This document shows, one piece after another, positions 541-32,275 of a DNA stretch of 34,757 nt. A program made the translations under genes and the position numbers. The first letter of the stretch is position 1. Every line of letters begins with the position of its first letter. Location: positions 1-34,757 of the IMG/VR virus record IMGVR_UViG_2778261151_000006. One strand, written 5' to 3'. The notes beneath the pieces are model-generated. The model did no database searches and was not told the DNA's origin. It worked only from the letters and a program-made list of their open reading frames with translations. This DNA comes from a virus. Lineage: Duplodnaviria > Heunggongvirae > Uroviricota > Caudoviricetes.

Positions 541-921
541 TTATGAGTTCTGGAATTCTTCTGCCCGTCTTTCCAGCTCAGCCATGAAAGAAGTTTTGGC
601 TTTTTCGTGAGCATCTGGGGCCATGATGCTGATGATTTGTATATTGTCATAATCCATCCAGTGCCTTGTATAAACCAGATAGATATTTGAAGTTCTGTCT
701 ATTTGGGCTTTGCTTTTCTTCCATGGTGGTTCTGACGGTAGTCTTATGTGTAATTTATATACAAACGAACCACATAATCTTGCGTTATCTTCCCACTGCC
801 CTTCATTGCCGAATCTGTCAGGGAGAACACCGGTATTTAACCAGTTTTCCAGAGCCTTTCCGTAAACTTTTGCAATGTCCTGGTATTCAACATCTTTATG
901 AATGCTTACTTTGCTTGCCAT
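541..921 (-). CDS. Hypothetical protein (126 aa), translationally coupled to the upstream gene
   Basis: ORF with ATGA stop/start overlap at 921 and GGAG 8 nt upstream of the ATG; no family recognised by eye. Confidence 0.55.
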   Translation of the reverse strand: MASKVSIHKDVEYQDIAKVYGKALENWLNTGVLPDRFGNEGQWEDNARLCGSFVYKLHIRLPSEPPWKKSKAQIDRTSNIYLVYTRHWMDYDNIQIISIMAPDAHEKAKTSFMAELERRAEEFQNS

Positions 922-1547
922 CAGGAAAACTCCGGTGCCGGGAGTCCCATGTTTTTATGCTCGGCAATAATCATTGCTTTCACATTTCCGTCAGACAGCG
1001 TATTGCCCAGGCTGGTCGTTTTGTCTGGTGCGGTGCTTCGTTTGATGGCGTTGATGGCATCACGAGCGATAAACTCCCCCTGCGCAATTGCCCGACCAAA
1101 ACGAACCAGTTTATTGCGATAGGCGATTCTTTGCTCCAGGCTATCCGGATACATTTTTGCCAGGTTATCCGGATCCATTACAATTTTGACAGCCTCTTTA
1201 ACACGGGTGTGCTGCTTAAGTGACTCTTCGCATATTTTTATGATTTTTGCGGTTTTGTCAGTAAACAGAGCTCCCTTGCCTCTGTTCTGTCGTTCTTCAA
1301 TGACTGCATTGAACGCGGCACGCATGTTGTCATTCAGCCCGTTGATATATTCAATAGCTTCTTCAAGAGGCAGAAACACCTGACCATCATGATGCTCAAA
1401 TGTAAGCATTGAAACCACTCTGGCGTGTGTCGCGGATTCAATAACTGTTGTTGGTAGTATCGTGCTTTTGGCTGGCACCGGAGCCAGTGATGCTGTCAGA
1501 GCTGTAGCAATAGCAGCAATGGCAGCAGACTTTGATTTTTGTTTCAT
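921..1547 (-). CDS. Hypothetical exported protein (208 aa) with N-terminal signal peptide
   Basis: Start chosen at ATG 1545-1547 (GGAG 6 nt upstream); N-terminus MKQKSKSAAIAAIATALTASLAPVPAKS is a typical Sec signal; longer ORF to 1559 is possible. Confidence 0.65.
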   Translation of the reverse strand: MKQKSKSAAIAAIATALTASLAPVPAKSTILPTTVIESATHARVVSMLTFEHHDGQVFLPLEEAIEYINGLNDNMRAAFNAVIEERQNRGKGALFTDKTAKIIKICEESLKQHTRVKEAVKIVMDPDNLAKMYPDSLEQRIAYRNKLVRFGRAIAQGEFIARDAINAIKRSTAPDKTTSLGNTLSDGNVKAMIIAEHKNMGLPAPEFS

Positions 1548-1720
1548 AATGCACTCCATAGGTTGATGTGTTCAGCATATCGCAAATAGCAGCTTGTATA
1601 AAGAAACGCCACATCAGCAGTGATCGTTTTACGCGCTTTTATTCTTGTTGCGATCCTTTTTTTCAGTTTTATTCGGGAGCTTAATTTTGTGCAGTCCGCG
1701 TCGCGTCTGGGTGAGGGTAG

Positions 1721-1757
1721 CAAAAAGAAAACCCGTAGTTTTTACACTGCGGGTTCG
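1721..1757 (-). terminator. Terminator-like hairpin, likely 3' end of the hok-like mRNA (copy 2 of the 37-bp element)
   Basis: Minus strand reads aacccgcagtgtaaaaactacgggttttcttttt; lies about 90 nt downstream of the hok-like stop. Confidence 0.6.
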
Positions 1758-1846
1758 TTTGTCCATGACTGCGAGAATAGGGTGCCTTGTCGGCCTTACC
1801 CTGGCAACCGATTGACGGGGAAGTTGCCTTCCCCGTCGCGGTTTTC

Positions 1847-1987
1847 TTACTGTCTACATTGTAAGAACGCCGCAAACTCCGCTCCCCAGAAACTCATCCG
1901 TATTTCACACAGCGAACCGTGCAACATCCAGATGATGAGGATTGCCGTCACGCAGAACGTGATGGCCGTAAGCGATTTTTGCGACAT
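1847..1987 (-). CDS. Hok/Gef-family type I toxin (46 aa, single transmembrane helix)
   Basis: Not in the supplied ORF track; translated by hand as MSQKSLTAITFCVTAILIIWMLHGSLCEIRMSFWGAEFAAFLQCRQ. Has the SLCEI and E-x-AAF motifs of Hok/Gef toxins; GGAG 9 nt upstream of ATG. Confidence 0.75.
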   Translation of the reverse strand: MSQKSLTAITFCVTAILIIWMLHGSLCEIRMSFWGAEFAAFLQCRQ

Positions 1988-2090
1988 AGCACTTGCTCCT
2001 TTTTCGGAGAGGCGCTAACCTTCTACTTGCTGAGGGTAGATGGTCAGGGCCTCGGGTTAACATTAAAGTTGACTCGGGGCCTTTCCACAT
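1905..2090 (-). CDS. Possible mok-like overlapping reading frame upstream of and overlapping the hok-like gene
   Basis: 61-aa ORF in a different frame, starts upstream of hok and overlaps its 5' part, as in hok/mok/sok loci; no sequence support beyond position. Confidence 0.3.
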   Translation of the reverse strand: MWKGPESTLMLTRGPDHLPSASRRLAPLRKRSKCYVAKIAYGHHVLRDGNPHHLDVARFAV

Positions 2091-2178
2091 CTGGCCTTCG
2101 GGTATTCCCTCCAGCCATCAGCCGAAAGGCACCCGCGCGTAATCTATCGCTTTTTTGTTACTCCGGCAATTCTGCCTG

Positions 2179-31953: not shown

Positions 31954-32130
31954 GGTGTGGCCTCTTTGCTCGGTGATAGAAATAGCTCACCATCCAGAGT
32001 TGAGAATCTCGGGGTGGCGAGACGTACAGGGTTCTCAACACCGGAGAGCAAAGAATCCGGCCCGACCGAAGTCGGCCCCGTACGCCCCGCCATAATTCTG
32101 ACGCGAAAAAGACGTGGCAATACAGTACGC

Positions 32131-32153
32131 ACAAAAAAACCGCTGGCGCGGTT
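32131..32153 (-). terminator. Rho-independent terminator within the early-region gap
   Basis: Hairpin aaccgc-tggc-gcggtt followed on the minus strand by 7 T. Confidence 0.5.
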
Positions 32154-32275
32154 ATGCGCTTTGCTCTGTATCGGGTTGAGAATCCCGGCACCCGTTTTAT
32201 GAGGTGCAGCGGAAATGTAACCTGACCGATTGCGGCATGGCAAGCGGTTTTTTTGTGTGTGCATGTTCTGGTTTC

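Follow-up and report, generated by a model that had tools for sequence, protein, structure and literature searches.

The window, by which we mean the whole 34,757-nucleotide stretch of caudoviral DNA that was analysed, carries at 1847..1987 on the minus strand a hok gene coding for a peptide of 46 amino acids (MSQKSLTAITFCVTAILIIWMLHGSLCEIRMSFWGAEFAAFLQCRQ) with an N-terminal transmembrane helix at approximately residues 5-23. The gene comes after gpD and ogr, the latter positioned at 2179-2439 and recognized by the Pfam family Ogr_Delta. The segment of the window from 2179 to 27000 is 95.7% identical, over 91% of the length of that segment, to Escherichia phage P88 (Xuanwuvirus, Peduoviridae), in which hok is gp52 (NC_026014). 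The gene, its Shine-Dalgarno sequence, an overlapping mok-like frame and a terminator all fall within 1721-2178, the interval to which an initial sequence-only reading had assigned the unit.

That reading described the gene as unannotated, which is correct for the ORF track supplied to it but not elsewhere, as hundreds of E. coli genomes in RefSeq, along with P88, carry an annotation for it beside ogr. At a query coverage of at least 80%, there are 926 complete E. coli genomes in which the ogr-hok locus bears the annotation "Hok/Gef family protein", and a shorter query raises the number to 1638. Under this name, NCBI nr and UniRef also contain the identical 46-aa protein, on 251 contigs, and it occurs in genomes with the identical gpD-ogr-hok-208aa-YafO-tRNA-pgsA-uvrC neighbourhood. 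Two relatives with identical loci (L003 and L005) have E. coli/Shigella-type pgsA-uvrC surroundings and share with the window a 1.2-kb YafO-like cassette between hok and the tRNA genes. More distant copies of the 46-aa clade are found in Stx phages, in a lambdoid tail-fibre region, on IncI1 plasmids and in O157 islands. A scan of IMG/VR for relatives yielded 80 loci, all at 98% protein identity, which are informative for variation in the UTRs rather than for deep diversity. The hok locus is real but already known and annotated, and hence ordinary. Short type I toxin genes escape length-filtered ORF tracks, and a reader given the sequence only can catch them.

The Hok peptide

The hallmarks of the Hok/Gef family can be read directly from the peptide, with SLCEI at residues 25-29 and E-F-A-A-F at residues 37-41. 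A family match was obtained with the Pfam profile PF01848 (HOK_GEF), which scored 30 bits (E 4e-7; gathering cut-off 22) and was matched over profile positions 5-42 of 42 (38/42), and PHROG 251 ("MokW-like host killing") matched the peptide with an E value of 4e-22. The NCBIfam HokA and Hok models gave weaker matches, which fell under their strict equivalog cut-offs. More than 80% of 1264 Hok peptides retain a set of C, T, L-C-E and E residues (10.1101/2025.08.07.668861), and all of these positions are represented in the 46-aa peptide, as C12, T14, L26, C27, E28 and E37. Hydropathy peaks at 2.55 over residues 8-22, within the hydrophobic helix formed by residues 5-23. Taken together, the Pfam score above cut-off, the PHROG match, the hallmark residues and the hydropathy profile bear out the original description of a single-helix protein of the Hok/Gef type.

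The hok frame is the one under purifying selection, since variation is concentrated at the third codon position: among 20 distinct variants of the CDS within the close clade, variable sites at codon positions 1, 2 and 3 number 1, 2 and 15, respectively. Identity to HokC of E. coli K-12 is just 30% over 33 residues, which places the 46-aa peptide in a distinct clade of the Hok family. The clade is represented in the literature by "cluster 72" of Escalera-Maurer et al. (bioRxiv), whose member 72_1621 has the same 46 residues as the window peptide except for the single difference R45K; cluster 72, P88 gp52 and the RefSeq Hok entries occupy the same place after ogr in P88-like prophages. According to that preprint (10.1101/2025.08.07.668861), 45 Hok homologues were assayed, three of which were non-toxic, and 72_1621 was among those assayed but outside those three. 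On this sequence evidence, the 46-aa ORF is a genuine and intact Hok-type membrane toxin gene with a predicted antisense-RNA control region. Its Hok/Gef identity and RNA architecture are computational assignments, and we infer its toxicity from plasmid R1 and from the tested, near-identical peptide.

Phage annotation pipelines call the window clade "MokW-like host killing", which invites comparison with hokW-sokW of the Stx2 prophage Sp5/933W. Both loci are prophage-borne, and for hokW-sokW the activities of toxin and antitoxin have been proven (PMC8621323). Identity of the two was ruled out, as HokW starts with MKQQKAM according to the hokW primers (PMC8621323); it resembles HokC and has 51 aa, whereas the window clade has 46. 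In Stx phages the 46-aa clade is represented in addition by a copy of its own (L014).

The hok mRNA and its folding switch

The predicted hok promoter is positioned at 2141..2169 on the minus strand, with a -35 hexamer TTGCCG (2164-2169), a 17-nt spacer and a -10 hexamer TAGATT (2141-2146). It matches the consensus at 8 of 12 positions, which is under the threshold of a simple promoter scan, and the -10 hexamer and its spacing to the GGGTGCC start are kept in the relatives. The 5' end of the transcript was placed by the Rfam model RF01794, which is matched over its full length (positions 1-157) by 1974-2134 of the minus strand with 53.6 bits and an E value of 3e-10, a score below the gathering score of 59. 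The K-12 locus scores 118 bits with this model, compared with 54 bits for the window and 42-48 bits for other members of the 46-aa clade. As a control, the model was located in K-12 (L009), where it matches 502-654 on the hokC strand while the annotated sokC lies at 553-611 on the opposite strand. Despite its name, RF01794 therefore models the hok leader, from the 5' end of the mRNA to the hok start, and position 1 of the model puts the hok +1 at window 2134. More generally, hits to this "sok antitoxin" family sit on the hok-leader strand, and strand calls need to be inverted when Sok is being annotated from them.

The full-length hok mRNA is thus predicted to extend over 1722..2134 on the minus strand (413 nt), and it folds with an energy of -175.7 kcal/mol (z -7.6 relative to shuffled sequences). 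The Shine-Dalgarno sequence AAGGAG (1996..2001, minus strand), which the sequence-only reading had called good, is positioned 8 nt 5' of the ATG and is either invariant or GGAGG in all relatives. The downstream terminator of that reading is visible in the mRNA fold as an intrinsic terminator at 1722..1755 on the minus strand, with a stem at 1730-1755 followed by a U-run to 1722. The stem contains one C.A mismatch, caused by a T at plus-strand position 1736; in nearly all relatives the stem is a perfect CCCGCAG/CTGCGGG. Neither the promoter nor the minus-strand hok terminator was recovered by the simple promoter and terminator scan; in the case of the terminator, the single mismatch in the stem accounts for the omission. 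The scan returned a single terminator-like match, at plus-strand positions 1813-1838. It represents the reverse complement of a stem-loop in the hok 3' UTR, followed by TTTTCTT, and it could halt plus-strand transcription entering hok from the cargo side.

The elements of a hok-type folding switch are found at both ends of this mRNA. The tac element comprises the first 15 nt (mRNA nt 1-15, GGGUGCCUUUCGGCU; window 2120..2134, minus strand) and has two possible partners, fbi and ucb. The fbi element, GGCCGA-C-AAGGCACCC, is positioned in the 3' UTR at mRNA nt 340-355 (1780..1795, minus strand) and is complementary to tac, the two forming a closing helix of 15 bp in which 9 bp are separated from a further 6 bp by a one-base bulge. 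A perfect 9-nt complement of the first nine mRNA bases arose in the 124-nt 3' UTR in 17 of 20,000 shuffles. The ucb element (mRNA nt 47-59; 2076..2088, minus strand) pairs with tac in the open, translatable fold, as seen both in the minimum free energy structure and in pair counts across relatives. Immediately upstream of fbi, a stem-loop at mRNA nt 292-329 (1806..1843, minus strand) is likely to protect the end that 3' processing leaves on the mRNA. Closed and open folds of the molecule are isoenergetic, at -175.3 and -175.7 kcal/mol respectively; since forcing the 15-bp tac/fbi helix costs 0.4 kcal/mol, both states of the known hok switch would be available to the molecule.

Conservation of these helices was assessed in an alignment of 38 relatives, 36 of them distinct, that are 74-100% identical. 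Among the 36 distinct sequences, tac is paired with fbi in 95.5% of cells and with ucb in 99%. When the structure is tested as a whole, pairing is 87.7% in register and falls to 30-53% once the partners are slid against each other, though these in-register percentages are inflated, as the window sequence itself served to define the helices and most of the relatives are close. Variation in tac/fbi is mostly one-sided (G-C to G-U), so that true covariation there is limited; strong covariation is confined to the 3' stem-loop, where compensatory double changes occur in 5 of the 10 pairs of the upper helix. The P88-like relatives, whose leader and 3' UTR are 89-93% identical to those of the window, show minor sequence differences only, and relatives that diverge by 10-25% in sequence retain all of the RNA elements. 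The presence and conservation of a hok-type mRNA architecture are therefore supported. The leader folding that the initial reading had proposed as a check recovers the tac/ucb stem and the predicted target hairpin of Sok, both of which are kept in the relatives.

Several of these elements have counterparts in characterized systems. K-12 hokC/mokC/sokC (gef) shares the end-to-end match to the leader model in the same orientation, a tac that begins GGGUGC, and a Sok placed at the homologous stretch of the leader. Plasmid R1 hok/mok/sok (parB), the experimental paradigm, has a membrane toxin, a stable mRNA closed by tac/fbi, a tac/ucb stem, 3' processing and a cis-antisense Sok composed of a tail and a hairpin (PMC9841398), all of which are predicted here. 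The leader in the window is about 26 nt shorter than that of R1, with the hok AUG at nt 148 as opposed to nt 174 or so.

The same elements bear on the view that the window copy is an inactive relic, as are most chromosomal hok loci of E. coli K-12 according to work cited in the preprint (10.1101/2025.08.07.668861). The mismatch in the terminator stem and the weak promoter hexamers of the window copy would fit such decay. However, the ORF is intact, its frame is under purifying selection and the RNA elements are retained across relatives; the locus is also carried by P88, an isolated and viable phage, and the R45K variant 72_1621 falls outside the three non-toxic sequences of the tested set. 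We consider a relic very improbable.

The Sok antisense RNA and the mok-like frame

The initial reading expected a Sok-like RNA on the plus strand, which both homology to sokC and an asymmetry in folding support, but it placed the RNA at about 2040-2160; the best position is approximately 2029-2090, where Sok would overlap the hok leader only. The annotated K-12 sokC ncRNA maps through the alignment to window 2031-2090 on the plus strand. The predicted Sok promoter is found at 1993..2021 on the plus strand, with a -35 hexamer TTGCTC (1993-1998), a 17-nt spacer and a -10 hexamer TAACCT (2016-2021), from whose positions transcription is predicted to start near 2029. Its hexamers are conserved but weak, matching the consensus at only 6 of 12 positions, and were missed by the scan; AGGTTA, the complement of the -10 hexamer, is invariant in 38 of 38 aligned relatives, with its spacing kept.

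The predicted Sok at 2029..2090 on the plus strand is approximately 60 nt long (a 62-nt span) and would consist of a single-stranded 5' tail of 12 nt (2029-2040) and a 16-bp hairpin (2046-2083), followed by UUUCC. The plus strand of 2029-2090 folds with -29.3 kcal/mol (z -4.4), as against -16.0 kcal/mol (z -2.1) for the opposite strand. The asymmetry is explained by G.U pairs on the one strand becoming C.A mismatches on the other, and it is seen in 23 of 23 distinct variants, with mean energies of -26.7 and -17.3 kcal/mol. This argues that the Sok hairpin has been selected on the plus strand. The region can thus encode an RNA of tail and hairpin that is complementary to the hok leader, and Sok is predicted to occupy about 2029-2090 of the plus strand. 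Its target in the mRNA would be a hairpin at nt 82-126 (2009..2053, minus strand), the 3' arm of which contains the complement of the Sok -10 hexamer. The lower 11 pairs of this hairpin are retained in nearly all sequences, and CUCA in its loop may be read as a YUNR motif.

The overlapping mok-like frame of the initial reading exists in the window, from ATG 2090 to 1905 on the minus strand, but it is not conserved among relatives and does not start where K-12 mokC does. It comprises 61 codons (1905..2090), is preceded by GAAGG and overlaps hok, and its ATG is positioned 103 nt upstream of hok, at the extreme 3' end of the stretch complementary to Sok. In R1, mok starts at nt 116-118, 58 nt before hok, while in K-12 mokC is an in-frame upstream extension that starts at the equivalent of window 2039. 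At this latter position the window has no ATG, GTG or TTG, and the in-frame AUC found there meets a stop after 8 codons, which rules out a mok start of the R1 or K-12 type at the homologous leader position. An ORF that spans the hok ribosome-binding site is absent from 14 of the 36 distinct relatives, including the P88, Stx-phage, IncI1-plasmid and O157 copies. Across the 36, the frame that begins at the conserved upstream ATG is 1, 8, 10, 15, 17, 19, 21, 24, 28, 61 or 78 codons long; the start of the mok-like frame alternates between two ATGs among relatives, and in some it is the ATG at nt 17. Given the varying frame lengths and the 14 relatives that have no spanning ORF, mok function is not a conserved property of the 46-aa clade.

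This matters for how Sok might act. Hok synthesis in R1 depends on mok being translated as far as the hok ribosome-binding site (PMC9841398), and as the mok frame is not conserved here, the mode of Sok repression cannot simply be transferred from R1. One candidate, in which Sok binding would release the CCUCUCC-containing 3' arm of the target hairpin and let it sequester the ribosome-binding site of hok, was rejected because accessibility is unchanged: by partition-function folding, the probability that this site is unpaired is approximately 0.31-0.37 in full-length, truncated and Sok-blocked mRNA. Cleavage and decay of the Sok-mRNA duplex is the simplest reading of repression at this locus. 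It is possible, though we hold the idea with considerable reserve, that the phage-borne 46-aa clade works without mok altogether, the tac/fbi/ucb switch and Sok having been kept while control is exerted by duplex-triggered decay or by refolding of the leader, and that read-through from ogr could add a tie to the late lytic programme. If this is true, the clade would depart from the hok/mok/sok mechanism of the textbooks in being mok-independent. The lack of conservation, in a widespread prophage clade, of a frame that is essential in R1 is a mildly novel thread of the analysis and the first point that specialists might follow up.

With a probability of about 0.85, the locus is an intact type I toxin-antitoxin cassette of the hok/sok kind and belongs to the 46-aa Hok clade ("cluster 72" of the preprint). 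It would be accessory cargo of a P88-like, P2-family prophage, situated at the right end between ogr and the attachment-site side. Sequence and comparison with relatives suggest that the promoter directly 3' of ogr would produce the 413-nt hok mRNA, in which pairing of tac with fbi would give a closed, inert and stable molecule; alternatively, the 5' end would pair with ucb, exposing the leader hairpin as an antisense target. By analogy with R1, slow 3' trimming to the stem-loop at 1806-1843 would remove fbi and generate the open mRNA. The short and unstable Sok (about 2029-2090, plus strand), made constitutively, would then pair with the open leader and stop Hok synthesis, as in R1; since the mok frame is not conserved in the clade, it probably acts mainly through duplex cleavage and decay. 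Once synthesis of Sok ceased, the stable pool of mRNA would be translated, again following the R1 paradigm, and the trigger could be loss of the DNA, a general shut-off of transcription, or lytic growth, in which transcripts reading through from ogr would out-titrate Sok. Like the R1 toxin, the 46-aa peptide would insert into the inner membrane and collapse the membrane potential.

The survey of 32,532 hok loci in the preprint (10.1101/2025.08.07.668861) expressly excludes Mok, Sok and the mRNA ends from its analysis. The present coordinates provide a map of RNA elements for a Hok clade whose RNAs lack experimental description.

Candidate roles and neighbouring features

Of the roles that such a cassette could have, selfish retention of the prophage, or of the prophage end, is ranked first, and we favour it tentatively. 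Help with the timing of lysis comes next, then exclusion of other phages, and then the view that the locus has no current role, which we regard as unlikely.

Help with the phage's own lytic cycle would follow the pattern of hokW-sokW in Sp5. Late transcription reading through from the tail genes, gpD and ogr into hok would out-titrate Sok, and the Hok then produced would weaken the membrane and advance lysis. The arrangement of the genes lends itself to this, as the hok -35 hexamer begins 10 nt past the ogr stop and the scan found no minus-strand terminator between the two, so that transcripts of the ogr strand should enter hok; such read-through is itself a prediction from sequence. P2-family prophages are generally not SOS-inducible, which counts against a contribution to lysis. 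In Sp5, hokW-sokW is a proven type I system that raises phage release after induction: Sp5 released half as much phage once the pair was deleted, and HokW was seen upon induction (PMC8621323). This is the only experimental result cited for a prophage hok/sok, and it points to lysis help after induction (PMC8621323), though it comes from another Hok clade, HokW being a different, HokC-like peptide of 51 aa from a lambdoid phage. Lysis help is accordingly given a minor share, somewhat above that of exclusion. A second point that specialists might follow up is that the locus comes immediately after ogr, the late activator gene, and that no terminator separates the two. Across 2134-2181, transcripts of ogr and of the late operon probably continue into the hok leader, and ogr may share the terminator of hok.

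Phage exclusion, or abortive infection, was the role suggested by the sequence-only reading. A lytic phage that shuts down host transcription would cause Sok to decay, and Hok would kill or depolarize the cell before the invader could finish its cycle. As summarized in PMC8621323, R1 hok/sok on a high-copy plasmid reduced the plating efficiency of T4 by 42% and its plaque size by approximately 85%; the effect was weak, however, and was seen at high copy number. According to the preprint (10.1101/2025.08.07.668861), hok genes are four-fold enriched in prophages but are not enriched near defence systems. The accessory position at the prophage end, adjoining a second toxin cassette (YafO-like), would suit a role in exclusion, but no PADLOC model matches the 46-aa peptide and no feature of the sequence sets exclusion apart from the other roles. 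A literature search on hok in P2-like defence hotspots found nothing relevant. We regard exclusion as rather doubtful, and retention of the prophage or its end remains the favoured reading.

The adjoining cassette is flanked by a 45-nt direct repeat. Its two copies, at 475-519 and 1711-1755, are 91% identical and correspond to the hok terminator and the GGTGCCCTCAC motif that follows it, and they enclose the 1.2-kb segment carrying a 212-aa ORF and the YafO-like toxin. Relatives that have no cassette pass straight from the GGTGCCCTCAC motif into host DNA. The cassette looks as if it had been inserted into, or recombined at, the terminal terminator of the prophage. Its YafO-family toxin is encoded at 541-921 on the minus strand (Pfam, 96 bits), and the 212-aa ORF (921-1559, minus strand) is positioned upstream of it with an ATGA overlap. 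The ORF has no match in Pfam, NCBIfam, PADLOC or PHROGs and may be an uncharacterised antitoxin partner of the YafO-like toxin.

In L019, L021, L025 and about 45 other IMG/VR loci, the predicted viral contigs stop exactly 3 nt past the match to the hok CDS, which indicates that automated prophage boundaries remove the hok 3' UTR together with fbi and the terminator. E. coli SCU-106 (L011) has two tandem copies of the 46-aa hok at 1628-2240, each with its own leader and 3' UTR, in the interval between ogr and serS of a P2-like prophage. At the early, or immunity, end of the prophage in the window, two further small RNAs adjoin each other on the minus strand, a C4 antisense RNA at 32010-32097 (Rfam, 78.5 bits) and an isrK-like RNA at 32133-32207 (Rfam, 62.8 bits), both above their gathering scores.
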